Positions 2,281-64,000 are shown, counted from the stretch's first letter. The stretch is DNA of 64,000 nt from Eledone cirrhosa (GCA_964016885.1 OZ024741.1:80414001-80478000); one strand, 5' to 3'. The notes: generated from the letters alone by a model not told the origin. Numbers and translations are program-made.

Positions 2281-5200
2281 CATCATCATCATCATCATCA
2301 ACGTTTAACGTCCGTGTTCCACGCTTGCATGGGTTTGGACGGGGGTAGTCCCACTTGAGGCAAGAGTGATTGTCTTGCTCGCATAGGACTGTCTGGCAGG
2401 TTTTCTACAGTTGGATGCCCTTCCTAACACCAACCACATTTACAGTGTGGGTCTGGGAGGTTTTTACCGTGTTGCCTACACGGCCACATTACAGCGTGGA
2501 CTGTGTGTTTTTTTGTCGTGACACCTACACGATCTCATTTGTTTCGGCCTCGATGGCACGGCACCAACATAACTTTACATAGAACGGGGTGGTGTGGATG
2601 GGGTGGGGGTGGTGGTGGTGGGACGGGGTGTATTTTGTTAGAGATGCCTACTGGCTGGAGTAGGTTTTACTATATATTTAGGTAAGGCGGGTCTTCTCTG
2701 TTACTGAGTACCGCCAAAGGTCTCGGTCCAGTGACATTGTCTTGGAGAGGTGTAAGTGTGTGATGTCGGAGTTTATCAGCTCGTCCCAGGTTTTTCTAGG
2801 TCTGCCTATTCCGTGACTACCGTCTATCTTTATTGCCCTGCACTTTGTTATACAGCTATCGACTTTCATGCGCATCACGTGTCCATACCAACATAGCCTT
2901 CTCTCGAGTAAACAACATCTGATCCCTCTTATCTCTAATTTTTTCCTTAGTTCGTTTATGCTTTGCCGTTCACGTATATTACTGTTACACATCCAGCGGA
3001 GCATGCAAGCTTCGTTCCTCTCTAGTCTGCGTATATCCTCTGCACACAATGCCCAGGTCTCACTGCCATGCAGCATTGCTGTTCGTATGCAGGCATCGTA
3101 CAACCTGCCTTTCATTTTTAGGGAGAACCCTTTAGCAGCTAATAGTGGTATAAGCTCTCTGAACTTTTTCCAACCAGTTCTGACTCTAGCTACAGTACTT
3201 TCAGAGCACCCTCCCCCACTGCTGATTTTATCGCCCAGGTAACGGAAGCTGTCCACTATTTCTATAGAACCCTCTGCGCAATTGAAAGAGCTAGTATTTT
3301 GTGGGCACTTGCTGCTACTTATTGCACCAGAACACCGGCCACATGTAAAATCTATGTTCTTAGTTAGCTTACCTGTGATCCCACTACATCTTTTATGCAC
3401 CCATACTTTGCATTTAGGACATAAAATGGAGTTTCTACCTACGCCTTTCCTACACACCGAGCACGACCATTTCCCAGAAGGGACCGCCGCCTTGTTTTCT
3501 TTCCTACAAACTAGTACTTTGGTCTTAGCCAGGTTAATTTTAAGTCCTTTTGACTCTAGGCCGTGCTTCCATGTTTGGAATTTCTTCTCTAGCTCGACCA
3601 TTGATTCCGCTATGAGTGTCAGGTCATCTGCGTATAGGAGTTCCCATGGGCAGCCTGTCTTGAACTCCTCTGTTATAGCCTGAAGGGCAATAATAAATAG
3701 TAGTGGGCTGAGAACAGAGCCCTGATGGACGCCAACTTTTACGCTAAACTCTTCACTATATTCGTTGTTAATTCTAACCTTGCTGACTGTTTCTTTATAC
3801 ATGGCTTGTATAGCCCTCACAAGCCATTCGTCAACGCCTAGTTTTCTAAGAGCCCACCAGATAATGGAGCGGGGGACTCTGTCGAAGGCTTTCTCCAAGT
3901 CGACAAAAGCTAAGTAGAGGGGTTTACCTTTAGCTAGGTACTTCTCCTGTAGTTGTCGTACTATGAAAAGAGCGTCTGTGGTACTTTTGCCTGACACAAA
4001 CCCGAACTGCATTTCATCTAGGTCAATTCTCTCTCTGATTAGTTGCGCTATTACTTTTTCCGTGACCTTCATGACCTGGTCGATTAATTTAATGCCTCTA
4101 TAGTTACTCCTATCTAGGGCGTCTCCTTTACCCTTATAACAGTTAACGATGATGCTGCTATGCCAGTCCTTCGGAACAACCCCATTCTGTACGACTTGGT
4201 TAACTATGCGGGTGACCATGGTGTGTCCCACCGTGCCAGATGCCTTCAGCATCTCAGCAACTATTTCCGAAGGCCCAGCCGCCTTACCCGTCTTCATATC
4301 CTTGATTGTTGCCTTACTTATTATACTCCCCTCGACTAACACTGCTGGTCCCTCTATTGGGTCGATATGGGGGAGACTGTCTTTCTCCCATTTATTCTCC
4401 TCATTTAGTAGCCTTTCATAGTGACACTTCCAAGCTACCTTCTTATCAGCGTCGGTGATGGCAAGTGTGCCATCGTCGTTTAGTACACACTTCTCCCCGA
4501 CAATATCACGGTTTTCCTTGACGCATTGCCTAGCAATCCTGAACACCTCACGTTTTTGGTCATCGCGTTGTAGAACATGCTTGAACTTTCTTTCCTCAGC
4601 TTCCCTTCTTGCTAAGTACACTTGTCTCCTAGCTTCCCTCCTGGCCACTTGATAGTCTTCTCTACTTCCCCCATCCCGCCATACTTTCCAAGCCTGCTTT
4701 TTGGCCTTAATTGACCCCTCCACCTTACTGTTCCACCACCATGTTACTCTCCTCCTGCCTACAGGCCTGCTCCAGCCACAGACTTCGTCTGTCGCCAACA
4801 GCAGGTTTGCTTTCAGAAATTCCCACTCTCCCTCTATATTGTCCGACTCTAAATGTTCTTCCTTACTGTCGAAAGCATCAAGTAATATGCTTTGAAATTT
4901 ATTCCTGGCTGTGGGGTCCTTTAGCTTCCATATTTTTCTCCTGAGGATAGTCCTCTTCTGCTGTCGAGTACGTCTCGTCCTGACTATGAGGTCGCTAATT
5001 ATCAGTCTATGTTGGGAGGTGCATTCTTCATGGGGGAGGGATTTAGTGTTTACAACAGACACTCTGTCACGTCTTCTGGTAAGGATATAATCTACCTGGC
5101 TTGTGTGTTCCCCGGATCTATAGGTGATCAGGTGATTGTCACGTTTTTTGAAGTTAGTGTTACAGATAGTTAGGTTATTTGCATCACAGAATTCCAGGAT

Positions 5201-5806
5201 TCTGGAGCCTTCCTCATTTCTAGTACCAAACCCATAGCCTCCATGGATTTCGTCGTAGCCGTCACAATGTTGTCCAACGTGACCATTTAGGTCGCCTGCG
5301 ATAATTATATAGTCACTGTCGGATATTTGGGAGGTAGTTAGCATCAGTGTCTCATAGAATCTGTCTTTTATAGTGCCGGGCAGTCCGGATTGGGGTGCGT
5401 ACGCAGATATTACTGTCACCATAGTTCTATTGAGGACAAGTCGTATTTTAATTATTCTGTCGTTCACTCTATTTACGTCTATTATCTTATCTGCCCACTT
5501 TTCTGCTACCATGATTCCTACACCACCCAGCCCATCGTCGTTTCCCACCCAGAAAAGCTTATAACATCGTTTTTTGCCCTCAATGAACCTAACAGACCCA
5601 CCCCTCCACCTGGTCTCTTGAATACAACAAACATCGACCTCCTTACGTTCAAGCATTTCTACAACCTCGTTAGCGCGACCCTTTAGGGTGCCTACATTTA
5701 TGGTACCAACTCTGAAGTTTTGGATTGCGTTTGGGGGTTGGGGGCGGTGGGGGGCGGGGGGCGATGGGGTTATGTTAGCCGTCCGCGGTCGAAACAATGA
5801 GGAGTG

Positions 5807-5810
<4 letters not shown>
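2281..5810 (-). mobile_element. RTE-clade LINE, near full length, (CAT)n/(ATG)n 3' tail, 5' end abuts a long (TA)n run
   Basis: Single ORF with APE endonuclease and RT. ~400-bp 3' UTR ending ggacgttaaacgttgatgatgatg. Confidence 0.95.
2678..5809 (-). CDS. RTE LINE ORF: APE endonuclease + RT + PHD-like Cys/His finger + C-terminal domain (~1040 aa open frame)
   Basis: Motifs GTINVGTL, CIQETRW, SAYAPQ, AGDLNGH, SQHRL (EN); YRGIKL, FVDLEKAFDRV, GVHQGSVLSP, YADD (RT); CSVC..CPKC..H..C..CGRC; [13 protein letters not shown]. The first 31 aa of the listed 1074-aa ORF come from flank and microsatellite. Confidence 0.9.
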
Positions 5811-5860
<50 letters not shown>

Positions 5861-7074
5861 TGTGTGTGCGTATGTGTAAAAGGTAAACAGAAATAACAAC
5901 ACAAACAGTACAGTATATGGGAGGAATATACTAGTTTAACGCTTGGAATAGCAGGAAGAGGGTCTTAACGTTTCAAATGCTAGTCCTTCATCAGAAGAAA
6001 GAATGAGAAATTAGCAAGATTGAGGGGATGGGCGGGGCAGAATCGGAAAAAAAAATTTAGAGAAAAATAACGGCCATTCATGTTGCCATCTCTTGGAAAA
6101 CTGTTGATGCTGGTGTGTACATATACATACATACAAACACACACATATATATATATATACATAGTGAGAGAGAAACTAATTACTGTTATTGTTGGAGTGT
6201 TTTTGTTGTTTTTTTTACACATGGCACTTTTCTTCCTTTGATTTTTATTGGAAAAGGTAAGAAATTCTTCATAGTTTTATTTGTACATGTATGACGTATT
6301 TAGTTATGACTTATATATATATATATGACTTAGTTGTTAATGTTTATGCGCAATAAATTGGATATACACAAAATATTTTACCAATTTTTATACAATTCCT
6401 AATAATAATTAATTATAAAAATACAATAGGATTTTTAAGAGATCAAATGGGGTCCCTCAGAGTAAAAGAGGAATGAAATGGGATCATAGGTAAAAAAAAA
6501 AAGGTTGAGAACCACTAGTGTAAACAATGTAGAAACAGAACAAAAACCTGTGGATTACGTAGAACCAAACAGACACTCATACTCCTGAACTCAGTAAATG
6601 TGCTAACTATTTAAATGTCAAGTCAGTGATCTTCAATAAATGAGGTCACTTAGATAAATATCTTATGAATTAACACACAGTTATTCACTAAGAGCACTTA
6701 TATATATTACATAGTCCCCTAGTTCTTCAGCATTCCTGCATAAATCTTCAATCTTAATTTTTTAAGTTTTCTGTATATATCCAAAGTGATAAATGTAATT
6801 TACTTCAATAATCTCTCTCAATTACAATGCCAAACTTTACTTCCAACTCAATACATTAGAGATAACTTCAACTTCCCTTTCTGTTATCAAAACAAGATAT
6901 TTTTTATCTCAATATTTTAACATTTTAAAGACATATTTTTCTAACTTGAGTTAGCCCAAAGGAAATAACTCTTGCCAAACTATATGTAATTAACAAGTAA
7001 TGAGTTATGTCCCTTACCTAATCAATAAACGTTATCATAAACAACGTTGCTATCGTTACCATCGTCATTGCCAA

Positions 7075-33722: not shown

Positions 33723-33931
33723 GATAAAATGCTCTATCTTTAAGATAGTGTGTTACTGCTTACTCACATACACACACACATATGTATATATATAAATATA
33801 TAAACAATGTGTTATTTGGTTTGTTGATTATTCAACAAAGTTAATTTACAACAAATTAGAAGCACTCAACAATATTTATCAGGAGTATCATTAATATCAA
33901 TAAATGGAAAATATCTTTATAAAACCATATT

Positions 33932-33992
33932 TATTTTATTATACGTATTTCAAGGGTACTAATATTTTAGTACGCTTTCGGCAGATAAAATA
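33932..33992 (-). ncRNA. Type I hammerhead-like ribozyme, core variant CUGCCGA (mirror copy)
   Basis: Reverse complement of 34126-34186. Confidence 0.7.
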
Positions 33993-34125
33993 CAATAATT
34001 GGTGTAAAGATAGTGACATATCTTCATATGAACTTTGTTATAATTTCAGTGAAGATAGTATCTTCACTGAAATTATAACATAAAGTTCACATGAAGATAT
34101 GTCACTATCTTTACACCAATTATTG

Positions 34126-34186
34126 TATTTTATCTGCCGAAAGCGTACTAAAATATTAGTACCCTTGAAATACGTATAATAAAATA
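34126..34186 (+). ncRNA. Type I hammerhead-like ribozyme, core variant CUGCCGA
   Basis: tattttat-CTGCCGA-aag c gtactaa aata ttagtac c ctt-GAAA-tacgta-TA-ataaaata: perfect 8-bp stem I, long stem II and palindromic stem III. Confidence 0.7.
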
Positions 34187-34537
34187 AATATGGTTTTATA
34201 AAGATATTTTCCATTTATTAATATTATTGATATATATATATATATATGTGTGTGCATGTGTGTTGCCTATATAAACACGCATGCACTGTCAGTTAAACAT
34301 TGTTAAATACTGTCTATTTTAAAAGAAACACGCATTGTGTATACTACAGGCTGCATGTATGATCTTGTATTTGAAATTTACCGATTCCCAGTTCAGTCTC
34401 GATCGAGAACTACATATGATTTGCATCCCATTTACGATCAAGTATTGAAGTCGAGAAAGCAATTAAGTAATACTTTTCGCAATTTGCTAACTACATTAAA
34501 AAAATATTTCAACAAGAAATAATACATTATTTCTCTA

Positions 34538-42633: not shown

Positions 42634-44715
<2,082 letters not shown>

Positions 44716-46267
44716 ATAAATTGAAACAAAATGAAAACGAAATTTCATTTCTCACTCTTAGTATGGCACTTACTTAAATGTAAGTATGCATGTATACGTA
44801 CATACATATATGTATACAGACGTACAGTAGCATGCACATATATATATATATATACATATATACATACATATGCATACAGGTACACATACATATATGCACG
44901 TATCAGTTTAGCGGCGCTAACGTCGCTTTGTTCGTTTGTAAACAAACTGAACAGCCTGAATTTATGCCATACGGTGTTAAGGCAACCACGTCACCTTTTT
45001 GTTCAACACTGACACAGGAACGATGTACTAGTTTCAAGCTTGTTAGCTATCATCAGCACCGTTTACCCATCTGCCAGATAGTTGAACGTTCGAAAGTATA
45101 TACTTTCCTTATGAAAATTAACGGCTGAGCAGCCTAATTTGCATATTGAGTGAGTTAAATCGGTCAGGCATACCGAAAACGATAAATTGAAACAAAATGA
45201 AAACGAAATTTCATTTCTCACTCTTAGTATGGCACTTACTTAAATGTAAGTATGCATGTATACGTACATACATATATGTATACAGACGTACAGTAGCATG
45301 CACATATATATATATATATACATATATACATACATATGCATACAGGTACACATACATATATGCACGTATCAGTTTAGCGGCGCTAACGTCGCTTTGTTCG
45401 TTTGTAAACAAACTGAACAGCCTGAATTTATGCCATACGGTGTTAAGGCAACCACGTCACCTTTTTGTTCAACACTGACACAGGAACGATGTACTAGTTT
45501 CAAGCTTGTTAGCTATCATCAGCACCGTTTACCCATCTGCCAGATAGTTGAACGTTCGAAAGTATATACTTTCCTTATGAAAATTAACGGCTGAGCAGCC
45601 TAATTTGCATATTGAGTGAGTTAAATCGGTCAGGCATACCGAAAACGATAAATTGAAACAAAATGAAAACGAAATTTCATTTCTCACTCTTAGTATGGCA
45701 CTTACTTAAATGTAAGTATGCATGTATACGTACATACATATATGTATACAGACGTACAGTAGCATGCACATATATATATATATATACATATATACATACA
45801 TATGCATACAGGTACACATACATATATGCACGTATCAGTTTAGCGGCGCTAACGTCGCTTTGTTCGTTTGTAAACAAACTGAACAGCCTGAATTTATGCC
45901 ATACGGTGTTAAGGCAACCACGTCACCTTTTTGTTCAACACTGACACAGGAACGATGTACTAGTTTCAAGCTTGTTAGCTATCATCAGCACCGTTTACCC
46001 ATCTGCCAGATAGTTGAACGTTCGAAAGTATATACTTTCCTTATGAAAATTAACGGCTGAGCAGCCTAATTTGCATATTGAGTGAGTTAAATCGGTCAGG
46101 CATACCGAAAACGATAAATTGAAACAAAATGAAAACGAAATTTCATTTCTCACTCTTAGTATGGCACTTACTTAAATGTAAGTATGCATGTATACGTACA
46201 TACATATATGTATACAGACGTACAGTAGCATGCACATATATATATATATATACATATATACATACAT
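44716..46267 (-). mobile_element. 466-bp hammerhead-containing tandem repeat (retrozyme-like), 3.3 units, ribozyme sense on minus strand
   Basis: Exact 466-bp periodicity (ORF track repeats at 44731/45197/45663). HHRs at 45019-45063, 45485-45529 and 45951-45995. Confidence 0.9.
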
Positions 46268-49200
46268 CGTTCCTGTGTCAGTGTTGAACAAAAAGGTGAC
46301 GTGGTTGCCTTAACACCGTATGGCATAAATTCAGGCTGTTCAGTTTGTTTACAAACGAACAAAGCGACGTTAGCGCCGCTAAACTGATACGTGCATATAT
46401 GTATGTGTACCTGTATGCATATGTATGTATATATGTATATATATATATATATGTGCATGCTACTGTACGTCTGTATACATATATGTATGTACGTATACAT
46501 GCATACTTACATTTAAGTAAGTGCCATACTAAGAGTGAGAAATGAAATTTCGTTTTCATTTTGTTTCAATTTATCGTTTTCGGTATGCCTGACCGATTTA
46601 ACTCACTCAATATGCAAATTAGGCTGCTCAGCCGTTAATTTTCATAAGGAAAGTATATACTTTCGAACGTTCAACTATCTGGCAGATGGGTAAACGGTGC
46701 TGATGATAGCTAACAAGCTTGAAACTAGTACATCGTTCCTGTGTCAGTGTTGAACAAAAAGGTGACGTGGTTGCCTTAACACCGTATGGCATAAATTCAG
46801 GCTGTTCAGTTTGTTTACAAACGAACAAAGCGACGTTAGCGCCGCTAAACTGATACGTGCATATATGTATGTGTACCTGTATGCATATGTATGTATATAT
46901 GTATATATATATATATATGTGCATGCTACTGTACGTCTGTATACATATATGTATGTACGTATACATGCATACTTACATTTAAGTAAGTGCCATACTAAGA
47001 GTGAGAAATGAAATTTCGTTTTCATTTTGTTTCAATTTATCGTTTTCGGTATGCCTGACCGATTTAACTCACTCAATATGCAAATTAGGCTGCTCAGCCG
47101 TTAATTTTCATAAGGAAAGTATATACTTTCGAACGTTCAACTATCTGGCAGATGGGTAAACGGTGCTGATGATAGCTAACAAGCTTGAAACTAGTACATC
47201 GTTCCTGTGTCAGTGTTGAACAAAAAGGTGACGTGGTTGCCTTAACACCGTATGGCATAAATTCAGGCTGTTCAGTTTGTTTACAAACGAACAAAGCGAC
47301 GTTAGCGCCGCTAAACTGATACGTGCATATATGTATGTGTACCTGTATGCATATGTATGTATATATGTATATATATATATATATGTGCATGCTACTGTAC
47401 GTCTGTATACATATATGTATGTACGTATACATGCATACTTACATTTAAGTAAGTGCCATACTAAGAGTGAGAAATGAAATTTCGTTTTCATTTTGTTTCA
47501 ATTTATCGTTTTCGGTATGCCTGACCGATTTAACTCACTCAATATGCAAATTAGGCTGCTCAGCCGTTAATTTTCATAAGGAAAGTATATACTTTCGAAC
47601 GTTCAACTATCTGGCAGATGGGTAAACGGTGCTGATGATAGCTAACAAGCTTGAAACTAGTACATCGTTCCTGTGTCAGTGTTGAACAAAAAGGTGACGT
47701 GGTTGCCTTAACACCGTATGGCATAAATTCAGGCTGTTCAGTTTGTTTACAAACGAACAAAGCGACGTTAGCGCCGCTAAACTGATACGTGCATATATGT
47801 ATGTGTACCTGTATGCATATGTATGTATATATGTATATATATATATATATGTGCATGCTACTGTACGTCTGTATACATATATGTATGTACGTATACATGC
47901 ATACTTACATTTAAGTAAGTGCCATACTAAGAGTGAGAAATGAAATTTCGTTTTCATTTTGTTTCAATTTATCGTTTTCGGTATGCCTGACCGATTTAAC
48001 TCACTCAATATGCAAATTAGGCTGCTCAGCCGTTAATTTTCATAAGGAAAGTATATACTTTCGAACGTTCAACTATCTGGCAGATGGGTAAACGGTGCTG
48101 ATGATAGCTAACAAGCTTGAAACTAGTACATCGTTCCTGTGTCAGTGTTGAACAAAAAGGTGACGTGGTTGCCTTAACACCGTATGGCATAAATTCAGGC
48201 TGTTCAGTTTGTTTACAAACGAACAAAGCGACGTTAGCGCCGCTAAACTGATACGTGCATATATGTATGTGTACCTGTATGCATATGTATGTATATATGT
48301 ATATATATATATATATGTGCATGCTACTGTACGTCTGTATACATATATGTATGTACGTATACATGCATACTTACATTTAAGTAAGTGCCATACTAAGAGT
48401 GAGAAATGAAATTTCGTTTTCATTTTGTTTCAATTTATCGTTTTCGGTATGCCTGACCGATTTAACTCACTCAATATGCAAATTAGGCTGCTCAGCCGTT
48501 AATTTTCATAAGGAAAGTATATACTTTCGAACGTTCAACTATCTGGCAGATGGGTAAACGGTGCTGATGATAGCTAACAAGCTTGAAACTAGTACATCGT
48601 TCCTGTGTCAGTGTTGAACAAAAAGGTGACGTGGTTGCCTTAACACCGTATGGCATAAATTCAGGCTGTTCAGTTTGTTTACAAACGAACAAAGCGACGT
48701 TAGCGCCGCTAAACTGATACGTGCATATATGTATGTGTACCTGTATGCATATGTATGTATATATGTATATATATATATATATGTGCATGCTACTGTACGT
48801 CTGTATACATATATGTATGTACGTATACATGCATACTTACATTTAAGTAAGTGCCATACTAAGAGTGAGAAATGAAATTTCGTTTTCATTTTGTTTCAAT
48901 TTATCGTTTTCGGTATGCCTGACCGATTTAACTCACTCAATATGCAAATTAGGCTGCTCAGCCGTTAATTTTCATAAGGAAAGTATATACTTTCGAACGT
49001 TCAACTATCTGGCAGATGGGTAAACGGTGCTGATGATAGCTAACAAGCTTGAAACTAGTACATCGTTCCTGTGTCAGTGTTGAACAAAAAGGTGACGTGG
49101 TTGCCTTAACACCGTATGGCATAAATTCAGGCTGTTCAGTTTGTTTACAAACGAACAAAGCGACGTTAGCGCCGCTAAACTGATACGTGCATATATGTAT

Positions 49201-49774
49201 GTGTACCTGTATGCATATGTATGTATATATGTATATATATATATATATGTGCATGCTACTGTACGTCTGTATACATATATGTATGTACGTATACATGCAT
49301 ACTTACATTTAAGTAAGTGCCATACTAAGAGTGAGAAATGAAATTTCGTTTTCATTTTGTTTCAATTTATCGTTTTCGGTATGCCTGACCGATTTAACTC
49401 ACTCAATATGCAAATTAGGCTGCTCAGCCGTTAATTTTCATAAGGAAAGTATATACTTTCGAACGTTCAACTATCTGGCAGATGGGTAAACGGTGCTGAT
49501 GATAGCTAACAAGCTTGAAACTAGTACATCGTTCCTGTGTCAGTGTTGAACAAAAAGGTGACGTGGTTGCCTTAACACCGTATGGCATAAATTCAGGCTG
49601 TTCAGTTTGTTTACAAACGAACAAAGCGACGTTAGCGCCGCTAAACTGATACGTGCATATATGTATGTGTACCTGTATGCATATGTATGTATATATGTAT
49701 ATATATATATATATGTGCATGCTACTGTACGTCTGTATACATATATGTATGTACGTATACATGCATACTTACAT
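46263..49774 (+). mobile_element. 466-bp hammerhead-containing tandem repeat (retrozyme-like), 7.5 units, ribozyme sense on plus strand
   Basis: HHRs start at 46693, 47159, 47625, 48091, 48557, 49023 and 49489. Units appear identical. Confidence 0.9.
46693..46737 (+). ncRNA. Minimal type I hammerhead ribozyme (representative of 10 complete copies)
   Basis: aacggtg-CTGATGA-t agct aaca agct t-GAAA-ctag-TA^catcgtt: 7-bp stem I, canonical core, 4-bp stem II behind a U.U pair, palindromic ACTAGT stem III, and GUA cleavage after 46730. Confidence 0.92.
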
Positions 49775-50040
49775 GTATATATATATATATATGTGTATAT
49801 ATATATGTGTATATATATATGTGTATATATATATGTGTATATATATGTGTATATATATATATGTGTATATATATATGTGTATATATATATGTGTGTATAT
49901 ATATATGTGTATATATATATATGTGTATATATATATGTGTATATATATATGTGTGTATATATATATGTGTATATATATATGTGTGTATATATATATGTGT
50001 ATATATATATATATGTGTATATATATATGTGTATATATAT
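49775..50040. repeat. (TA)nTG(TG) imperfect array
   Basis: Only G interruptions on the + strand. Confidence 0.95.
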
Positions 50041-50078
50041 GAAATATAAGAATCAAAGAACTGTTCAAAACATTATTG

Positions 50079-50126
50079 TGCTTACAGCTGTTTCCTCCAA
50101 ACCGAGGTTTGGATTCTTCGGAGCAA
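50079..50126 (-). ncRNA. Minimal type I hammerhead of the Naiad 3' pLTR (core CCGAAGA)
   Basis: Minus strand: ttgct-CCGAAGA-a tccaaac ctcg gtttgga g-GAAA-cagctg-TA^agca. Palindromic ACAGCTGT stem III. The cleavage site overlaps a GTAAG donor-like motif. Confidence 0.8.
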
Positions 50127-51539
50127 TTTATTAATGCATGGACAGTTATATGACCTCCTTTTCAGCCGAGAGACATACCAAATACATATTCAAACATTGA
50201 TACATATTCAAACATTGTGGGTCAACATTCATTACAGAATTTAGAGTGGCAGTACACACTTCGAGATTACATTTATATTAATAGGTACAATCAAAAATCA
50301 AAGATATAGGTTAAAGTACAACATGAAGATAAGTGGTTATATAGTGCAAATGTTATATGTGTGGCACGCATGTGCGTCTTGTTTATATAGTGTGGCAGAG
50401 AGATATGTGTGGTAGAGGCACTTAGGTAGGTAAATAAGAGTGTTAGGTTGGTAGGTCTGGTGGCAAAGTCTTTATATGATTGATATAGTCTGTGTGTGGA
50501 GAAATATTATAAGCATTAAAGATAGTGCAAGCATTAAGTGTTATAAGTATTGGAGATGCACAGCGCAGGGATGTCAAGTAATTCATGTACTTCGGCATTT
50601 TCATGGTCAAGGGAGTGTATATTTCGATTATATGCCTTTCACATAATCCACGACAATCCAGTAAGAGATCGTAGTCTGGTGTTCTTTAGTTCGATACAGG
50701 GGGATGTTACGTTTCGAGAAACGCCATTGAATACCGGAAGTGTGTGTGTGGCTAAGGGGAGTTAATGCATGCGGGGAGGTAACTCTGGGGTTTCTATATC
50801 TAGCCATTAAAATGTGTCCCAATATAGACCCTAAATTCTATGGTGAGGTGCACCTTCCAAGAGAGACTTTTAAAGCATAAAGTGTACTAACTATAGAGTA
50901 GTTTATATTATTATTAAGGTGGATTAACCCATCTTAAGGTGCTACAAATGGAAATTATAGATGATGAGCGAGGATTCTAAACTGATCTCTGTGGTTGTAG
51001 TCTGCTCATATGACCAGGCGCGGTGATTGCAGGATTGCTTCAGGACCCAATGATCTCTGGTAAGATCTGGGTCATCGCTTGCTACATTGGATGTTGAAAG
51101 ATAATCGTCCCCAGGCAGGCCAAGGTCAATCCGCAGTCCTCGCGACCCCTCTCTGACCGTCAGATCATCCATATACGTACAACCCGCACGGCAGTTGCAT
51201 TGCATTCACTCACTGCGCTCAGCAGCCCGGTCCTACTGGTCAACAGCGCTACTCGATTAAATCATTTTACATCTGTCTAAGGAAGGTGTTTCCTCTGCCC
51301 AACAACATCCAACCGATCAATTCATGCTCAAAATTACCCTTAGAGCGGTGTAGTGCCATCAAGTGGGTGGATGTTGTCACACCTGCCGTAGAGGTATAAA
51401 TGGGTATTTTCCCTGCGAAGGGTTCCAGAGGGATGCCGTTGTTTGTGTTATAATGGATCAGCTAGTGTTGGGTATGTAGTATAGGGTGTGTTTCTGGTGT
51501 TTGATGCTAGATGTGGTGTTAGGTTCCAGTCCGACATTG

Positions 51540-53999
51540 CTATATATAGGGCTTAAAGTTTTGGAAGGAATGTCTGAGGCGGTGCTGGCAAGTTGCAAAC
51601 ACCTCAGATTTTTTGTTAAGTAGGTTACGGTTGGAGAAGATAATATTGTGTGTCTCTAGAATACAGAGGTTACAGAATTTATTAGGTGGTTTGTACGAGG
51701 TCGCGCTGCCTATCACTTCCCATTTGAGTGTGTATGGTTTATTTTTAGATTTTAGATAGTGTATGTAGCTAGAAAGTGAGGTGGAGTTGGCTAGGCTGTG
51801 CTTTTTGAACGAGTGGATGTGCGAGTTATATCTGATTTTGAAGCAGTTAGAAGTGGAGCCTACATAGGTTTCTGAAGAGTTATTAGTCGTGACTGTGCAT
51901 GAGTATATGACATCCTTGGTTAGGCATTTTTTATCTAAAGGGCAGGTTCTATTAGCTCTACAGTTACAATTATTCTGTGCGTTAGTCCGCTGGTTATAAT
52001 GCAATGCGGAAGTCTGTGTGGTGGATATAGGATTTTGGGTGTTCGGGTTGGCAACCCTGGTGTTATTACTTATACTAGTGTTATTTCTATTGTTACTGCC
52101 GTTGCTATTGTTGCTTGCTACAGTGGTATTTAGAGGGTTTGCATCCTGTTGTGATTTTGTTTGTTGGAAGTAAGAACTAATTTTACTATTATTGCTGCTA
52201 GCTATGTGGTATGCTAAGTTAGGCGTCGTAGAGTATGAGATTTTAATGGTGTTTTTGTTTAAGAGGTTGTGGTACTTGTGTCCTAGAGGGAAGTTTTTAT
52301 CTAGTAGTGAGAAGAAAGCCCTAGGTATGTTGGTGGAGACATTTAGGTTGAAAGGAGGGTTGAAAAATGTATTATTTCTTCTTCTATTTTTGTTTTTAGT
52401 GTTTGGTGTGTTGCTTCCTCCTAAGGCCTCACAGTAGTTTCCATGGTAATGGTTACTTCCTGTGGCACCCTCCGCTTTGGTGTACTTGTGGTTGCTATTC
52501 CTATTATTAGATTTCCTCATGGACATGTTGTGCGAGATTATGTTGTAGCTATGTGTTTTCTTAGGTAGGAACTCAATTTCTATATTATGGCCGGAGCTAG
52601 CTAATGCTTGATTGTAATATTGTGAGTTTTTGCTAAATATGTTTGCGTCATAGGACAGACTAGAGATTCTATTGGACACCCCCTTAGAGATAGAGTTTAA
52701 TATTGATCTAGGGTGATTAGACTTGGTATCTACGTAAATGAGTTTCTCATTAGGCTTATGGAAAGGTGTATATATTTTTGAGTCTAGGTATAGTGTGGCG
52801 TCTAGGAAGTTAACATTTTTAGTGTTTTTGTCCATGGTGATACTAAGGTTAAAGTTTTTGAATGTCTTATGCAGTTGTTTTCTAGTTCTTTCTATATTAA
52901 ATTTTTTATATTCTATGAGTAGAAGTGCATCATCGCGGTACAAACCACCGTTGAGGTAAGGGAGGTCTTTATGGATTTCATTGAGGAGGTATAGGCCGAC
53001 CAAATCAGTGACCTGCGCCGAGTCACTAGATCCCATGGTTATGTCGAAGTTGTTGTGCGTATCCTTGCGTGTCCATAGTTGGTCCTCGAAGGTGATTATG
53101 GTTTTACGGGCCGCAAGGATGACATCAACCTGGGCTCTAGTCAGGTCGCTATTGGTCATGGCCATGATAGGTGCCTTATTTAATAGGATAGGGGAAATAG
53201 AGGTGTAGTATGAATTGATATCAAATTGAATAAATTTTTTGTTTTTATTATTCTTGATATCCTTAAACCATTCAATTACTTCACCCGTATTTCCCCATTG
53301 TTTAAGGTGTATCTTGTGTTTAATTTGTGGGATGATTTTATCCAAAATCTTCTTGCTGATAATACCAATGTCGGACTTGGAAGGGCAGATAAGTCTTATC
53401 GTGGGGTTGCTGATGAAGTTCTCCTTATGGTCCTTCAGAGAGAATCTAGGGGGGTTCGGAGTGAAAGGTTGTGTATGCCTCTGTAGTCCTAGTTTAGACA
53501 CTATATTATAACCCTCTACATTAATATCTTCTAAGTTTTTCAAGGTGGTTTTTTTGTAGCTTTTATGTAGTTCATTATATATAAACTTTCTATAAGTAAT
53601 ATAATCTAGGCTGTATATGTTATTAGTTTTATCTGCGTGTACAATAATTTTATTACTAGTTTTGAATCCACTAATAGAAGTGTTAAGTTTGTTTAAGAAG
53701 GTGTTGCTTCTAATATGGTGCTTATTGTATTTAATGTTCTTAACTAGTTTAACTAGGTCATTTTCAAAGGAGTTAAGTAGAGTGTTATGAGGGGGGCTTT
53801 TAAAGGTTTTAAAGCCGAAGGAGTCAAAATTGTTAGTATTATTCAAGTTGTTAGATTTGTTTCTATCATAATGGAATGTCCTCCATCTCACTCTATGGAT
53901 AAATGAATTTACACTGTTGATCAGCAATTTCTCATATGTATTCCTGGATGGTATTGGTATGTTCTTGGTTGACATGGGGAGTTGGTCTTTGATTAGCAT
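51540..53999 (-). CDS. PLE polyprotein: RT + CxCx5Cx5C Zn-finger linker + GIY-YIG endonuclease (819 aa, intact)
   Basis: STKNIPIPS N-terminus; ADKT; LKDHK..PTIRLI; QFDINSYYTSI; DITMGSSDSAQVTDLVG; LYRDD; VNFLDATL; HKPN..YV..SNHP; [15 protein letters not shown]; [14 protein letters not shown]; CNLCILE..LLNKKSE..CQH. These motifs match the Naiad clade. Confidence 0.93.
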   Translation of the reverse strand: MLIKDQLPMSTKNIPIPSRNTYEKLLINSVNSFIHRVRWRTFHYDRNKSNNLNNTNNFDSFGFKTFKSPPHNTLLNSFENDLVKLVKNIKYNKHHIRSNTFLNKLNTSISGFKTSNKIIVHADKTNNIYSLDYITYRKFIYNELHKSYKKTTLKNLEDINVEGYNIVSKLGLQRHTQPFTPNPPRFSLKDHKENFISNPTIRLICPSKSDIGIISKKILDKIIPQIKHKIHLKQWGNTGEVIEWFKDIKNNKNKKFIQFDINSYYTSISPILLNKAPIMAMTNSDLTRAQVDVILAARKTIITFEDQLWTRKDTHNNFDITMGSSDSAQVTDLVGLYLLNEIHKDLPYLNGGLYRDDALLLIEYKKFNIERTRKQLHKTFKNFNLSITMDKNTKNVNFLDATLYLDSKIYTPFHKPNEKLIYVDTKSNHPRSILNSISKGVSNRISSLSYDANIFSKNSQYYNQALASSGHNIEIEFLPKKTHSYNIISHNMSMRKSNNRNSNHKYTKAEGATGSNHYHGNYCEALGGSNTPNTKNKNRRRNNTFFNPPFNLNVSTNIPRAFFSLLDKNFPLGHKYHNLLNKNTIKISYSTTPNLAYHIASSNNSKISSYFQQTKSQQDANPLNTTVASNNSNGSNNRNNTSISNNTRVANPNTQNPISTTQTSALHYNQRTNAQNNCNCRANRTCPLDKKCLTKDVIYSCTVTTNNSSETYVGSTSNCFKIRYNSHIHSFKKHSLANSTSLSSYIHYLKSKNKPYTLKWEVIGSATSYKPPNKFCNLCILETHNIIFSNRNLLNKKSEVFATCQHRLRHSFQNFKPYI

Positions 54000-54248
54000 A
54001 TTGGCAATATTATATGTCAGCTCAACGATATGGAGCAGTTAATAGTATTAGTTATACTATTTATGGTTATGTAAATACAAAGCCTTAAGCAGTTGTAAGT
54101 ATTTTACACACACCCTAAATAGTGGTAGGCAGTAATGTATTACTACCTTATTACCAGTAAGTTAAGTAGCTCAATGTAAAAACATCAGATGATTTACAGA
54201 GCAGTTATATGAAATATAAGAATCAAAGAACTGTTCAAAACATTATTG

Positions 54249-54296
54249 TGCTTACAGCTGTTTCCTCCAAACCGAGGTTTGGATTCTTCGGAGCAA
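54249..54296 (-). ncRNA. Hammerhead of the upstream Naiad pLTR
   Basis: Identical to 50079-50126, about 250 nt upstream of the ORF ATG. Confidence 0.8.
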
Positions 54297-55711
54297 TTTA
54301 TTAATGCATGGACAGTTATATGACCTCCTTTTCAGCCGAGAGACATACCAAATACATATTCAAACATTGATACATATTCAAACATTGTGGGTCAACATTC
54401 ATTACAGAATTTAGAGTGGCAGTACACACTTCGAGATTACATTTATATTAATAGGTACAATCAAAAATCAAAGATATAGGTTAAAGTACAACATGAAGAT
54501 AAGTGGTTATATAGTGCAAATGTTATATGTGTGGCACGCATGTGCGTCTTGTTTATATAGTGTGGCAGAGAGATATGTGTGGTAGAGGCACTTAGGTAGG
54601 TAAATAAGAGTGTTAGGTTGGTAGGTCTGGTGGCAAAGTCTTTATATGATTGATATAGTCTGTGTGTGGAGAAATATTATAAGCATTAAAGATAGTGCAA
54701 GCATTAAAAGTGTTATAAGTATTGGAGATGCACAGCGCAGGGATGTCAAGTAATTCATGTACTTCGGCATTTTCATGGTCAAGGGAGTGTATATTTCGAT
54801 TATATGCCTTTCACATAATCCACGACAATCCAGTAAGAGATCGTAGTCTGGTGTTCTTTAGTTCGATACAGGGGGATGTTACGTTTCGAGAAACGCCATT
54901 GAATACCGGAAGTGTGTGTGTGGCTAAGGGGAGTTAATGCATGCGGGGAGGTAACTCTGGGGTTTCTATATCTAGCCATTAAAATGTGTCCCAATATAGA
55001 CCCTAAATTCTATGGTGAGGTGCACCTTCCAAGAGAGACTTTTAAAGCATAAAGTGTACTAACTATAGAGTAGTTTATATTATTATTAAGGTGGATTAAC
55101 CCATCTTAAGGTGCTACAAATGGAAATTATAGATGATGAGCGAGGATTCTAAACTGATCTCTGTGGTTGTAGTCTGCTCATATGACCAGGCGCGGTGATT
55201 GCAGGATTGCTTCAGGACCCAATGATCTCTGGTAAGATCTGGGTCATCGCTTGCTACATTGGATGTCGAAAGATAATCGTCCCCAGGCAGGCCAAGGTCA
55301 ATCCGCAGTCCTCGCGACCCCTCTCTGACCGTCAGATCATCCATATACGTACAACCCGCACGGCAGTTGCATTGCATTCACTCACTGCGCTCAGCAGCCC
55401 GGTCCTACTGGTCAACAGCGCTACTCGATTAAATCATTTTACATCTGTCTAAGGAAGGTGTTTCCTCTGCCCAACAACATCCAACCGATCAATTCATGCT
55501 CAAAATTACCCTTAGAGCGGTGTAGTGCCATCAAGTGGGTGGATGTTGTCACACCTGCCGTAGAGGTATAAATGGGTATTTTCCCTGCGAAGGGTTCCAG
55601 AGGGATGCCGTTGTTTGTGTTATAATGGATCAGCTAGTGTTGGGTATGTAGTATAGGGTGTGTTTCTGGTGTTTGATGCTAGATGTGGTGTTAGGTTCCA
55701 GTCCGACATTG

Positions 55712-56294
55712 CTATATATAGGGCTTAAAGTTTTGGAAGGAATGTCTGAGGCGGTGCTGGCAAGTTGCAAACACCTCAGATTTTTTGTTAAGTAGGTTAC
55801 GGTTGGAGAAGATAATATTGTGTGTCTCTAGAATACAGAGGTTACAGAATTTATTAGGTGGTTTGTACGAGGTCGCGCTGCCTATCACTTCCCATTTGAG
55901 TGTGTATGGTTTATTTTTAGATTTTAGATAGTGTATGTAGCTAGAAAGTGAGGTGGAGTTGGCTAGGCTGTGCTTTTTGAACGAGTGGATGTGCGAGTTA
56001 TATCTGATTTTGAAGCAGTTAGAAGTGGAGCCTACATAGGTTTCTGAAGAGTTATTAGTCGTGACTGTGCATGAGTATATGACATCCTTGGTTAGGCATT
56101 TTTTATCTAAAGGGCAGGTTCTATTAGCTCTACAGTTACAATTATTCTGTGCGTTAGTCCGCTGGTTATAATGCAATGCGGAAGTCTGTGTGGTGGATAT
56201 AGGATTTTGGGTGTTCGGGTTGGCAACCCTGGTGTTATTACTTATACTAGTGTTATTTCTATTGTTACTGCCGTTGCTATTGTTGCTTGCTACA
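55712..56294 (-). pseudogene. 5'-truncated copy of the Naiad ORF (Zn finger + GIY-YIG only)
   Basis: Protein identical to the C-terminal ~190 aa of 51540..53999. Truncated at a TA array. Confidence 0.9.
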
Positions 56295-57417: not shown

Positions 57418-58575
57418 ACTCTTTTACTCTTTTACCTGTTTCAGCCATCCGGCTGAGGCCATGCTGGGGCACCGCCCTTGTTGCTACACATTTTATCTCC
57501 AGACTGTATAGGTTGGCCACTGGTGTAGGAGGGAGTTTGTTGCTGCTGCCCTTAGGTTTCCCTCGTGTCTTGCTGTGGGCTCATCCGGGATCCTGGATAA
57601 CAAGGTGTCGAGATGTTTCTTAAAGACATCCACCTCCACGTCATGCAAGTCCCGCAGATGCCTCGGCAGCCTGTTGAAGAGTTGAGGGCCCTTGAATCCC
57701 AGGCTATTGCAATACCTGCTCCTTATTCTAGATGTGGAAGACGGGACCTTTGGCACCACACAGTGACGTCCTGTTCGACGGTTGGTCCAGCTCCCAATGC
57801 CAAAGTTTGGTGCTAGTCCCTCCAGGATTTTCCACATGTAGATCACTGCGTATCTCTCCCATCTTCGCTCCAAGGAGTAGAGGTTCAGTTCCTTCAGCCT
57901 CTCCCAGTAGCTTGTCTCCCTCATCTTGGCAATCCTCTTGGTGTAGCTTCGCTGGATTGCCTCAAGCTCTGTGGTTAGTTTGACACTATGGGGTGACCAC
58001 AGCTGGGAGCAGTAGTCCAGGCGGCTTAGGACAAAAGTCCTCCACAGTGTCAACATGGTGTCTCGATCTCTTGTAAGGAAAGTCCTCAAGATCCAGCCAG
58101 CGAATCGTCTACATGCTGTCGCCACCTTCATGATGTGTGAAGAAAAAGATGCATCATCGCTCATGTCTATGCCCAGGTCTCGTATCGATTTTGACACGGG
58201 GATATCGGTCCCTCCTGGTCCTGTGTAGCTGTGTTCCGCTATATTTGTGTTTGTGTTTGCAGGTTTGTATTGTAGGGCTTGGAATTTGCCAGCATTAAAC
58301 TGCATGTTGTTTTCTTCCGCCCATCTGTATATGGCATCCAGATCCTGCTGTAAGAGGGCAGCGTCAGCCGGGTTTTTGATTGCCTGTGCTACCTTAGTGT
58401 CATCAGCATAGCTAGTGAGGGATGTTGTTGCATGCACCACAGAGGGCATGTCCGAGAGAGCCACCAAAAACAGTAGTGGTCCCAGGACTGTCCCCTGAGG
58501 CACCCCACTTGTTATCGGTGTTTCCCTCGAGAGGGCCCCATTTGCTGCGACTGCCTGGCTTCTGTCCCTCAGGAA
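57418..58575 (-). mobile_element. CR1-group LINE 3' fragment (open frame), (TAAAAGAG)n tail
   Basis: [68 protein letters not shown]. 3' UTR ggcggtgccccagcatggcc..ggctgaaac. Confidence 0.9.
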
Positions 58576-58915
58576 TGTATATATATATATATGTGTATAT
58601 ATATATATGTGTATATATATATATGTGTATATATATATATATGTGTATATATATATATGTGTATATATATATATGTGTATATATATGTGTATATATATAT
58701 ATGTGTATATATATATATGTGTATATATATATATGTGTATATATATATATGTGTATATATATGTGTATATATATATATGTCTATATATATATATGTGTAT
58801 ATATATATATGTATGTATATATATATATGTATGTATATATATATATATGTATGTATATATATATATATGTGTATATATATATATGTGTATATATATATAT
58901 GTGTATATATATATG

Positions 58916-58992
<77 letters not shown>

Positions 58993-58995
58993 GTA

Positions 58996-59089
<94 letters not shown>

Positions 59090-59090
59090 G

Positions 59091-59158
<68 letters not shown>

Positions 59159-59319
59159 GTATATATATGTATATATATATATATGTATATATGTATATGT
59201 ATATATGTATATGTATATATATATATATGTATATATGTATATATATATATATGTATATATATGTATATATATGTGTATATATATATATATGTATATATGT
59301 ATATATATATATATGTATG

Positions 59320-59366
<47 letters not shown>

Positions 59367-59511
59367 GTATATATATATATGTGTATATATATATATATGT
59401 GTATATATATATATATGTGTATATATATATATATGTGTATTATATATATATGTGTATATATATATGTGTGTATATATATATATATATGTGTATATATATA
59501 AATATATATAT
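58576..59511. repeat. (TA)nTG array
   Basis: Almost exclusively G interruptions on the + strand. Confidence 0.95.
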
Positions 59512-59513
59512 CT

Positions 59514-62366
59514 CATCATCATCATCATCAACGTTTAACGTCCGTGTTCCACGCTTGCATGGGTTTTGGACGGGGGTAGTCCCACTTGAGGCAAGAGTGA
59601 TTGTCTTGCTCGCATAGGACTGTCTGGCAGGTTTTCTACAGTTGGATGCCCTTCCTAACACCAACCACATTTACAGTGTGGGTCTGGGAGGTTTTTACCG
59701 TGTTGCCTTACACGGCCACATTACAGCGTGGACTGTGTGTTTTTTGTCGTGACACCTACACGATCTCATTGTTTCGGCCCGATGCGCGCACCAACATAAC
59801 TTTACATAGAACGGGGTGGTGTTATCTGGATTGACGTTTATAATTATAAGACGGGGTGTAATTGTTAGATGCTACTGGCTGAGTAGGTTTTACTATATAT
59901 TTAGGTAAGGCGGGTCTTCTCTGTTACTGAGTACCGCCAAAGGTCTCGGTCCAGTGACATTGTCTTGGAGAGGTGTAAGTGTGTGATGTCGGAGTTTATC
60001 AGCCTCGTCCAGGTTTTTCTAGGTCTGCCTATTCCGTGACTACCGCTCTATCTTATACTGCCCTGCACTTTCATACGCTATCGACTATCAGTCCTTCATA
60101 CCAACGTAGCCTTCTCTCGAGTAAACAACATCTGATCCCTCTCTAATTTTTTCCTTAGTTCGTTTATGCTTTGCCGTTCACGTATATTACTGTTACACAT
60201 CCAGCGGAGCATGCAAGCTTCGTTCCTCTCTAGTCTGCGTATATCCTCTGGCACACAATGCCCAGGTCTCACTGCCATGCAGCATTCCGTATGCTGCATC
60301 GTACAACACTGCCTTTCAATTTTAGTGAGAACCCTTTAGCAGCTAATAGTGGTATAAGCTCTCTGAACTTTTTCCAACCAGTCTGACTCTAGCTACAGTA
60401 CTTCAGAGCACCCTCCCCCACTGCTGATTTTATCGCCCAGGTAACGGAAGCTGTCCACTATTTCTATAGAACCCTCTGCGCAATTGAATGAAGCTAGTAG
60501 TTTGTGGGCAACTTGCTGCTACTTATTGCACCAGAGCAACGGCCACATGTAAAATCTATGTTCTTAGTTAGCTTACCTGTGATCCCACTACATCTTTTAT
60601 GCACCCATACTTTGCATTTAGGACATAAAATGGAGTTTCTACCTACGCCTTTCCTACACACCGAGCACGACCATTTCCCAGAAGGGACCGCCGCCTTGTT
60701 TTCTTTCCTACAAACTAGTACTTTGGTCTTAGCCAGGTTAATTTTAAGTCCTTTTGACTCTAGGCCGTGCTTCCATGTTTGGAATTTCTTCTCTAGCTCG
60801 GCCATTGATTCCGCTATGAGTGTCAGGTCGTCTGCGTATAGGAGTTCCCATGGGCAGCCTGTCTTGAACTCCTCTGTTATAGCCTGAAGGGCAATAATAA
60901 ATAGTAGTGGACTGAGAACAGAGCCCTGATGGACGCCAACTTTTACGCTAAACTCTTCACTATATTCGTTGTTAATTCTAACCTGCTGTCTTCTTTATAC
61001 ATGCTGTATAGCCCTCACAAGCCATTCGTCAACGCGCTTTTCTAAGAGCCCACCAGATAATGGAGCGGGGACTCTGTCGAAGCTTTCTCCAAGTCGACAA
61101 AAGCTAAGTAGAGGGGTTTACCTTTAGCTAGGTACTTCTCCTGTAGTTGTCGTACTTACTTGAAAAGAGCGTCTGTGGTACTTTTGCCTGACACAAACCC
61201 GAACTGCATTTCATCTAGGTCAATTCTCTCTCTGATTAGTTGCGCTATTACTTTTTCCGTGACCTTCATGACCTGGTCGATTAATTTAATGCCTCTATAG
61301 TTACTCCTATCTAGGGCGTCTCCTTTACCCTTATAACAGTTAACGATGATGCTGCTATGCCAGTCCTTCGGAACAACCCCATTCTGTACGACTTGGTTAA
61401 CTATGCGGGTGACCATGGTGTGTCCCACCGTGCCAGATGCCTTCATTCAGCATCTCAGCAACTATTTCCGAAGGCCCAGCCGCCTTACCAGTCTTCATAT
61501 CCTTGATTGCCTTACTTATTATACTCCCCTCGACTAACACTGCTGGTCCCTCTATTGGGTCGATATGGGGGAGACTGCCTTTCTCCCAATTATTCTCCTC
61601 ATTTAGTAGCCTTTCATAGTGACACTTCCAAGCTACCTTCTTATCAGCGTCGGTGATGGCAAGTGTGCCATCGTCGTTTAGTACACACTTCTCCCCGACA
61701 ATATCACGGTTTTCCTTGACGCATTGCCTAGCAATCCTGAACACCTCACGTTTTTGGTCATCGCGTTGTAGAACATGCTTGAACTTTCTTTCCTCAGCTT
61801 CCCTTCTTGCTAAGTACACTTGTCTCCTAGCTTCCCTCCTGGCCACTTGATAGTCCTCTCTACTTCCCCCATCCCGCCATACTTTCCAAGCCTGCTTTTT
61901 GGCCTTAATTGACCCCTCCACCTTACTGTTCCACCACCATGTTACTCTCCTCCTGCCTACAGGCCTGCTCCAGCCACAGACTTCGTCTGTCGCCAACAGC
62001 AGGTTTGCTTTCAGAAATTCCCACTCTCCCTCTATATTGTCCGACTCTAAATGCTCTTCCTTACTGTCGAAAGCATCAAGTAATATGCTTTGAAATTTAT
62101 TCCTGGCTGTGGGGTCCTTTAGCTTCCATATTTTCCTCCTGAGGATAGTCCTCTTCTGTTGTCGAGTACGTCTCGTCCTGACTATGAGGTCGCTAATTAT
62201 CAGTCTATGTTGGGAGGTGCATTCTTCATGGGGGAGGGATTTAGTGTTTACAACAGACACTCTGTCACGTCTTCTGGTAAGGATATAATCTACCTGGCTT
62301 GTGTGTTCCCCGGATCTATAGGTGATCAGGTGATTGTCACGTTTTTTGAAGTTAGTGTTACAGATA
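59514..62366 (-). mobile_element. RTE LINE copy nearly identical to 2281-5168, with clustered indels
   Basis: Colinear with the first copy from the (CAT)n tail into the EN domain. Error-like indels concentrate in 59700-61450. Confidence 0.92.
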
Positions 62367-63099
<733 letters not shown>

Positions 63100-64000
63100 A
63101 AACTCCATTTTATGTCCTAAATGCAAAGTATGGGTGCATAAAAGATGTAGTGGGATCACAGGTAAGCTAACTAAGAACATAGATTTTACATGTGGCCGGT
63201 GCTCTGGTGCAATAAGTAGCAGCAAGTGCCCACAAACTACTAGCTCTTTCAATTGCGCAGAGGGTTCTATAGAAATAGTGGACAGCTTCCGTTACCTGGG
63301 CGATAAAATCAGCAGTGGGGGAGGGTGCTCTGAAAGTACTGTAGCTAGAGTCAGAACTGGTTGGAAAAAGTTCAGAGAGCTTATACCACTATTAGCTGCT
63401 AAAGGGTTCTCACTAAAAATGAAAGGCAGGTTGTACGATGCCTGCATACGAACAGCAATGCTGCATGGCAGTGAGACCTGGGCATTGTGTGCAGAGGATA
63501 TACGCAGACTAGAGAGGAACGAAGCTTGCATGTCTCGCTGGATGTGTAACAGTAATATACGTGAACGGCAAAGCATAAACGAACTAAGGAAAAAATTAGA
63601 GATAAGAGGGATCAGATGTTGTTTACTCGAGAGAAGGCTACGTTGGTATGGACACGTGATGCGCATGAAAGTCGATAGCTGTATAACAAAGTGCAGGGCA
63701 ATAAAGATAGACGGTAGTCACGGAATAGGCAGACCTAGAAAAACCTGGGACGAGCTGATAAACTCCGACATCACACACTTACACCTCTCCAAGACAATGT
63801 CACTGGACCGAGACCTTTGGCGGTACTCAGTAACAGAGAAGACCCGCCTTACCTAAATATATAGTAAAACCTACTCCAGCCAGTAGGCATCTCTAACAAA
63901 ATACACCCCGTCCCACCACCCCCGCCCCCACCCCATCCACACCACCCCGTTCTATGTAAAGTTATGTTGGTGCCCGCGCCATCGAGGCCGAAACAAATGA
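63100..64000 (+). mobile_element. RTE LINE 3' portion in inverted orientation (continues beyond window)
   Basis: NSILCPKCK...TEKTRLT* plus 3' UTR. Reverse complement of ~59760-60637. Confidence 0.92.

Follow-up and report, generated by a model that had tools for sequence, protein, structure and literature searches.

The window analysed here, a stretch of 64,000 nucleotides of DNA from Eledone cirrhosa, contains a tandem repeat which reverses its direction at a single point, and this point falls on the position where a hammerhead ribozyme predicted within the repeat would cut its own RNA. The question raised by this locus is whether the joint is a genomic footprint of ribozyme activity, as claimed in the original prediction, or whether the two positions coincide by chance. 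The explanation that best accounts for the data, and in which we have good confidence, is that the locus represents a single young insertion, two-armed, of a 466-nt hammerhead repeat that is abundant in the genome and belongs to the non-LTR retrozymes; the insertion likely made use of a borrowed Penelope-type enzyme, and its joint likely came to lie on the cut site by chance.

The array and its predicted ribozyme

As assembled, positions 44716-49774 are made up of two arrays of a 466-nt unit arranged head to head. Positions within the unit (u) are numbered such that u1 is the first base 3' of the predicted hammerhead cut, and the features of the array and its borders are the following:

43829-44715, no strand: TA microsatellite (target) at the 3' end of the minus arm
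44716-46267, minus strand: minus arm, 3.3 units with the same sequence as the plus arm, 3' end at u310
45020-45994, minus strand: three intact hammerhead copies, with the first post-cut base at about 45025, 45491 and 45957
46263-46267, no strand: inversion joint, a 5-nt microhomology (TACAT) common to both arms, which holds the in-register cut position 46264/46265
46263-49774, plus strand: plus arm, 7.5 identical 466-nt units, 5' start at u465-u4 (ambiguous across the overlap), 3' end at u248
46694-46736, plus strand: predicted minimal type I hammerhead, the first of seven intact plus-strand copies with a period of 466, predicted cut 46730/46731
49775-50040, no strand: TA microsatellite (target) at the 3' end of the plus arm, a tract also used by the 3' end of a neighbouring element

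From 46263 (u465) onward the plus arm keeps the register of the unit, with 46265 being u1, exactly 466 nt upstream of 46731. The coordinates originally given for the locus are thereby confirmed, with the sense arm beginning at 46263-46265, 466 nt before the next cut site, and the same holds for its about 7.5 units (46263-49774), for the 5-nt TACAT microhomology between the arms at 46263-46267 and for the RNA 3' ends of the arms, which face outward into TA arrays (43829-44715 and 49775-50040). The overlap corresponds to u465-u3 on the plus arm and to u161-u157 on the minus arm, whose 5' start, at about u157-u162, is inside the TA/TACA tract of the unit; the reverse complement of the overlap is present six times in this tract. 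Six breakpoints are possible within the 5-nt overlap, the cut site being one of them, and the longest plus-arm match begins 2 nt upstream of the predicted cut. Beyond the joint there are seven intact plus-strand sites, from 46731 to 49527, and the minus arm has three. At its outer end the minus arm extends to u310, that is, 62 nt past the plus-arm end at u248, which corresponds to a 'tail' of the Penelope type. All 11 units of both arms are 100% identical, the GC content of the unit is about 36%, and the array is devoid of any open reading frame of at least 150 aa.

The ten intact cores in the window represent a type I motif in each tandem unit, which would be composed of a 6-bp stem I, a CUGAUGA core, a 4-bp stem II, GAAA and a loopless palindromic stem III. 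Stems I and II are recovered in the minimum free energy fold of a 48-nt stretch. Among 84 distinct variants (from 299 matches in the fetched loci, a tally which includes a few rows of other families), G-U occurs at pair 3 of stem I in 39 and A-U in 29, and U and C alternate at core position 7, a pattern that fits a conserved hammerhead fold with predicted cleavage. An Rfam scan of the window returned no match at the gathering score, and the fold of 81 nt was no better than those of shuffled sequences (z -0.57), as expected for a minimal motif; a cofold of two copies did not isolate a dimeric ribozyme fold and was left unused. The minimal dimeric hammerheads described in Penelope-like elements (Cervera and de la Pena 2014, PMC4209133) have the same loopless palindromic helix III, with a predicted need for dimerization, an extra base between the core and helix II and motifs placed close together on opposite strands, as in the 466-nt unit. 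The two systems differ in that the present motif belongs to a protein-free tandem unit and its activity is predicted only. According to the same source the minimal hammerheads of Penelope-like elements are dimer-dependent and cleave weakly in vitro, and one of nine Xenopus retrozyme dimers is reported to have cleaved (bioRxiv 10.64898/2026.07.22.740005). The 35-nt ribozyme core has 10,471 exact copies in the 3.0-Gb assembly (pattern search). The earlier view of the repeat as a hammerhead-bearing retroelement is supported.

Characteristics of non-LTR retrozymes are found in this family, namely a hammerhead motif per unit and a short, non-coding, low-GC unit with many dispersed copies, and so are those of Penelope-type insertion: a head-to-head inversion, a tail at one end and an AT-rich or microsatellite target. 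Judged from its sequence, the 466-nt family is a non-LTR retrozyme with a Penelope-type footprint, of which self-cleavage and circles are predicted properties. Metazoan non-LTR retrozymes (Cervera and de la Pena 2020, PMC7229834; Li, Clavereau and Pollet 2026, bioRxiv 10.64898/2026.07.22.740005) are described as the same kind of non-coding low-GC tandem repeat, having, as here, a type I hammerhead per unit and thousands of copies, and both works propose Penelope-like elements as their mobiliser. The 466-nt unit slightly exceeds the range of 150-450 bp quoted for these repeats, and the two-armed head-to-head shape with paired fixed ends is not met in the available text of either work. On the other side, the Penelope-like insertions described with inverted pLTR and tail (PMC8557442, PMC3846280, PMC11167929) share with the present ones the head-to-head inverted 5'-truncated copy, the tail at one end, the two internal start sites, the AT-rich or TA targets and 5' joins at microhomology. 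Unlike Penelope-like elements, the 466-nt family has no open reading frame, and its tail measures 62 nt, compared with the 30-40 reported for them.

Family-wide ends, joints and arm starts

The family was sampled through the first 100 listed core matches (contig C1, first 70 Mb), which resulted in 52 clusters, all fetched and mapped to the unit. Head-to-head inversions are present in 32 of the 52 clusters, among the matches listed. The 3' ends of 101 segments, the two of the window included, are near u310 in 46 cases and near u248 in 31, with 20 at the internal TA tract of the unit and 4 elsewhere, and TA repeats abut 90 of the 101. Both ends are readable in 16 inversions, all of which have one end at u248 and one at u310; the other 16 of the 32 are unreadable. 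As to the joints, 20 of the 32 overlap by 1-5 nt, one is blunt, one overlaps by 16 nt and ten have a gap or an insert, meaning that 20 of the 21 flush joints have an overlap of 1-5 nt, compared with 46% expected for random pairs. Two joints, at L232/L233 and L037, are of a symmetric hairpin type centred on short palindromes, unlike the mostly asymmetric ones; these two resemble the palindromic joints reported for rotifer Penelope and interpreted as self-priming, from which the prevailing asymmetric joints of the family differ. The divergence between opposite arms of one insertion is 1.44%, that between units of the same arm 1.71% and that between loci 4.16%: since the arms differ less than the loci, both arms derive from one template variant.

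Most arms are shorter than one unit (41 of 64 are at most 500 nt), as would be the case if arms were inserted short and the arrays then grew by tandem amplification at the DNA level, and an unequal crossover model is discussed for retrozyme arrays (bioRxiv 10.64898/2026.07.22.740005); arm length would then be uninformative on the RNA template. However, the youngest insertions have two multimeric arms that are identical or nearly so to each other (divergence of 0% in the window, 0.3% in L082 and 0.5% in L046), which leaves little time for separate growth. Such growth is an unlikely explanation of the arrays, and it does not rescue the cut-site claim either.

In the 52-locus sample the arm starts are scattered across the whole unit, and the cut is inside the breakpoint interval for 0 of 64 arm starts (0.38 expected), the nearest being 4 nt off, from which a 95% upper bound of 4.6% of arms is obtained. 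This sample needed an intact core, so that short arms starting near the cut are under-sampled and the result is insufficient alone. Starts at u1/u4 in L043, L052, L060 and L077 were rejected as an artefact of a reference beginning at u1, and upon re-extension moved to u448, u463, u454 and u450. A given site has a probability of 2.6% of being covered on either arm by a 5-nt overlap; with the observed overlaps, chance coverage amounts to 1.2% per inversion (0.38/32), and when this is scaled to the genome, where inversions are estimated at about 3,350, about 40 joints would be expected to coincide with the cut by chance as that of the window does.

Arm starts were also captured genome-wide using patterns that require non-element bases upstream of a short anchor and need no core, which recover roughly a fifth to a third of the arm starts. 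A bin of four positions ending at u1 gave 23 matches, 11 of them beginning exactly at u1, and the control bins at u28-31 and u423-426 gave 16 and 5. Considering inversions alone, there are 19 in the cut bin (a list taken over from an earlier classification in the same analysis) versus 15 and 5 in the controls, corresponding to a rate ratio of 2.0-2.4 (p 0.006-0.03). This apparent twofold excess, the result most favourable to the original claim, was rejected, as a comparison within the same subfamily gives 4 at the cut versus 15 at u28-31. In fact, 15 of the 19 cut-bin inversions lack the exact word demanded by the u28-31 control: the excess is an artefact of the conserved ribozyme-side anchor, which admits older subfamilies.

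Two captures within single searches allow neighbouring positions to be compared. The first covered 14 positions (u464-u11) and gave 109 matches, 100 of which were listed and all 100 examined; among the matches listed there are 71 inversions, with 9 at u1, 9 at u9, 19 at u10 and 7 at u11. The count at u1 (9/71) compares with 5.5 for a uniform distribution and 8.9 for a microhomology model (p 0.53), the latter expectation being raised by the frequency of the complement of u1-3, of which the unit contains 17 copies versus a mean of 10.8. The second covered 11 positions (u462-u6) and gave 105 matches, of which 100 were listed and 98 rows examined, two tandem neighbours of one locus being counted together; among the matches listed there are 66 inversion rows, with 7 at u1, 14 at u4 and 10 at u462, and u1 (7/66) compares with 5.8 for a uniform distribution (p 0.37) and 5.2 for the microhomology model (p 0.26). 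The captures overlap, the seven u1 arms of the second set being also in the first. When clean joints are spread over their intervals, the breakpoint weight of u1 is 3.8 of 41 and 4.4 of 50, and several neighbours are higher. Removal of the two anchor-adjacent positions from the first capture leaves 9 at u1 versus 4.0 uniform (p 0.017) and 6.5 by microhomology (p 0.19), and a residual u1 excess below about twofold may be compatible with the data. The microhomology model is rough at single positions, as seen at u10 (19 versus 5.6) and at u4 in the second capture (14 versus 5.8). Positions u10 and u4 are joint hot spots above the simple microhomology prediction, and starts at u462 are often on TA flanks.

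On this evidence the view of the junction as a genomic footprint of ribozyme activity is not supported, as the count at u1 matches local microhomology and is below those at u10, u4 and u462; the genome-wide check suggested with that claim, enrichment of junctions at the cleavage position, revealed none, the 0/64 arm starts and the counts of 9/71 and 7/66 being near expectation, and the outcome is thus the one named in the original prediction as refuting it. The joint in the window likely lies on the predicted cut site by chance, and what was first claimed would then be coincidental, in an element of a kind already known. Among the titles and opening abstracts of mostly open-access papers, none was found that reports a comparison of retrozyme junctions with the cleavage position.

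It could still be that a minority of insertions, the present locus among them, were copied from self-cleaved linear RNA, with the enzyme running off at u1. Indeed, exact u1 joints occur elsewhere (11 of the 23 rows in the four-position bin), u1 outnumbers every other position from u464 to u8 in the first capture and equals u9 (9/71, among the matches listed), and R2 elements are described as a precedent, the cut of their HDV-like ribozyme setting the 5' junction (PMC3774820). In the present family, by contrast, no clustering of 5' junctions is seen at the cut, be it in the 52-locus sample, the two captures or the same-subfamily control. Besides the agreement of the u1 count with the microhomology model and its position below u10, u4 and u462, the excess over distant bins is gone within one subfamily, and arms starting at u1 extrapolate to about 45 of an estimated 6,700, which places such a route well under 1%. 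At this locus, moreover, the longest match already starts 2 nt before the cut, and copying of the arm went through seven sites that had not been cut, and we consider a self-cleaved template for it quite improbable.

Insertion route and RNA template

That the inversion arose artificially from a fold-back in assembly or long reads, or from hairpin formation by the DNA of a TA-rich tract, is highly improbable: the minus arm does end in the TA/TACA tract, the units are 100% identical and a separate 1.2-kb TA-centred palindrome is present at 42634-43831, yet a fold-back would yield a symmetric joint whereas the observed one pairs u157-161 with u465-3, both outer ends are the two fixed ends of the family, 32 of 52 loci of different ages (among the matches listed) have the same shape with different joints, and another strand-switch joint of the family, with a 4-nt overlap, is contained in one short-read contig, from a run which is possibly the assembly's own sample. 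A random fold-back had already been regarded as an unlikely origin in the original prediction, and this part is supported, given that the joint is asymmetric, that the 3' ends are fixed and of two kinds and that 32 of 52 loci are alike; the cut-site argument drawn from it is not.

An insertion by a Penelope-type enzyme would proceed by nicking of both strands of the TA tract and priming of one cDNA per nick, the two cDNAs beginning at u248 and u310, start sites that would both belong to a single RNA species. Synthesis of each would cover anything from a fraction of a unit to many units before ending at no set position, and the cDNAs would be joined via whatever short match is at hand: the joint in the window would have fallen in a tract that holds the needed 5-mer six times. 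The earlier proposal that two cDNAs were joined by microhomology fits the 20 of 21 flush joints with 1-5 nt of overlap, whereas the accompanying run-off of cDNA synthesis at the 5' end of a self-cleaved RNA is unsupported. Its two mechanisms are also in conflict, because run-off requires a 5' end, which a closed circle lacks. A purified Penelope-like protein of anole is reported to nick and extend both strands of AT-rich DNA, reverse transcription starting from two sites within the RNA that delimit the tail and the protein being a predicted dimer (PMC11167929). In the same report, ribozyme-dead RNA inserts equally well in vitro and no RNA reads ended at the cut site; the rarity of u1 ends in the present family is in line with this dispensability of cleavage for Penelope-type insertion in vitro. 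The strict pairing of one end of each kind observed here differs from the in vitro behaviour reported for the anole enzyme, which has no start-site difference between strands.

The RNA template likely had no defined 5' end, because a cleaved monomer would force both cDNAs to stop at u1, which is rare, and because the plus arm of the window crossed seven intact sites. With no stop seen at the cut, self-cleaved linear RNAs are disfavoured as templates and a circular RNA or a multimer left uncleaved would agree with the data, since priming of cleaved monomers at u248 or u310 would leave many arms ending at u1. We lean slightly towards a closed circle over a long uncleaved multimer: by analogy with PMC7229834, where circles are proposed as retrozyme templates, a circle would explain most simply the absent 5' end. 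More tentatively, with somewhat less than even confidence, the insertions may have preserved the traces of a rolling-circle, double target-primed reverse transcription that takes place in vivo, in which a dimeric Penelope-type enzyme would place one subunit at each fixed site of a closed retrozyme RNA circle, the old cut would go unsensed and the cDNAs would be stitched by microhomology. If so, the flat junction profile would be genomic evidence for circles, and not cleaved linear RNAs, as templates, and the strict one-of-each pairing would be an asymmetry unseen in vitro. The junction test bears on the question of the RNA form by which retrozymes re-enter the genome, its lasting results being the lack of clustering at the cut site and the strict pairing of ends. 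Thousands of young insertions provide the fixed ends and pairing rules against which a reconstituted enzyme can be judged.

Neighbouring elements and other features of the window

The other mobile elements in the window are the following, LINE-type copies spanning 2283-5935 and 57420-64000:

2678-5935, minus strand: LINE-type element with an intact-looking 1085-aa frame (endonuclease, reverse transcriptase, PHD finger)
50036-56294, minus strand: neighbouring Penelope-like element, a 4170-nt unit in partial tandem (2089-nt direct repeat, 99.9%), candidate helper type
57420-58578: 5'-truncated reverse transcriptase fragment between TA arrays
59513-64000: LINE-type copies related to that with the 1085-aa frame

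The 3' end of the neighbouring Penelope-like element is in the same TA tract (49775-50040) as that of the plus arm. Its 832-aa open frame (51540-54038), which has Asn-rich inserts, gave no Pfam match and no PDB sequence match; we take it to be Penelope-like from the motifs DKT and YRDD, a C-terminal GIY-YIG-like stretch and a Cys-rich linker, and the tandem and inverted architecture would also speak for this label. All 150 scored genomic matches to a 240-aa piece of the frame are 98-100% identical, and the family, which has many near-identical full-length copies, some of them head to head, is very young. Four loci were chosen for having neighbouring matches on opposite strands, and all four contain head-to-head joints; their minus arms end, next to TA, at one of two positions 164 nt apart, and their plus arms extend past the fetched stretch. 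To judge from these copies, an enzyme of the right type is active in the genome. As a proven helper the neighbouring element was nevertheless rejected, given that it has no significant sequence in common with the 466-nt unit (best E 0.72, the neighbouring family alone being compared) and contains neither CUGANGA nor a canonical hammerhead core.

The 1.2-kb palindrome at 42634-43831 (98.7%) consists of otherwise unique-looking DNA and is directly beside the left TA array; smaller palindromes are found at 33886-34232 and 297-560, and these window palindromes could be DNA-level or assembly fold-backs. In the fetched loci there is also another hammerhead repeat, whose period is 310 nt and whose core differs (L034:6346-8206, plus strand, and L139:93-403), beside a 466-family insertion and with an inverted arm in L034 as well. 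Finally, the words of the 466-nt unit are present at half or more in 13 sequencing runs from about ten organisms, which suggests that the family is common to related species or has recently moved.
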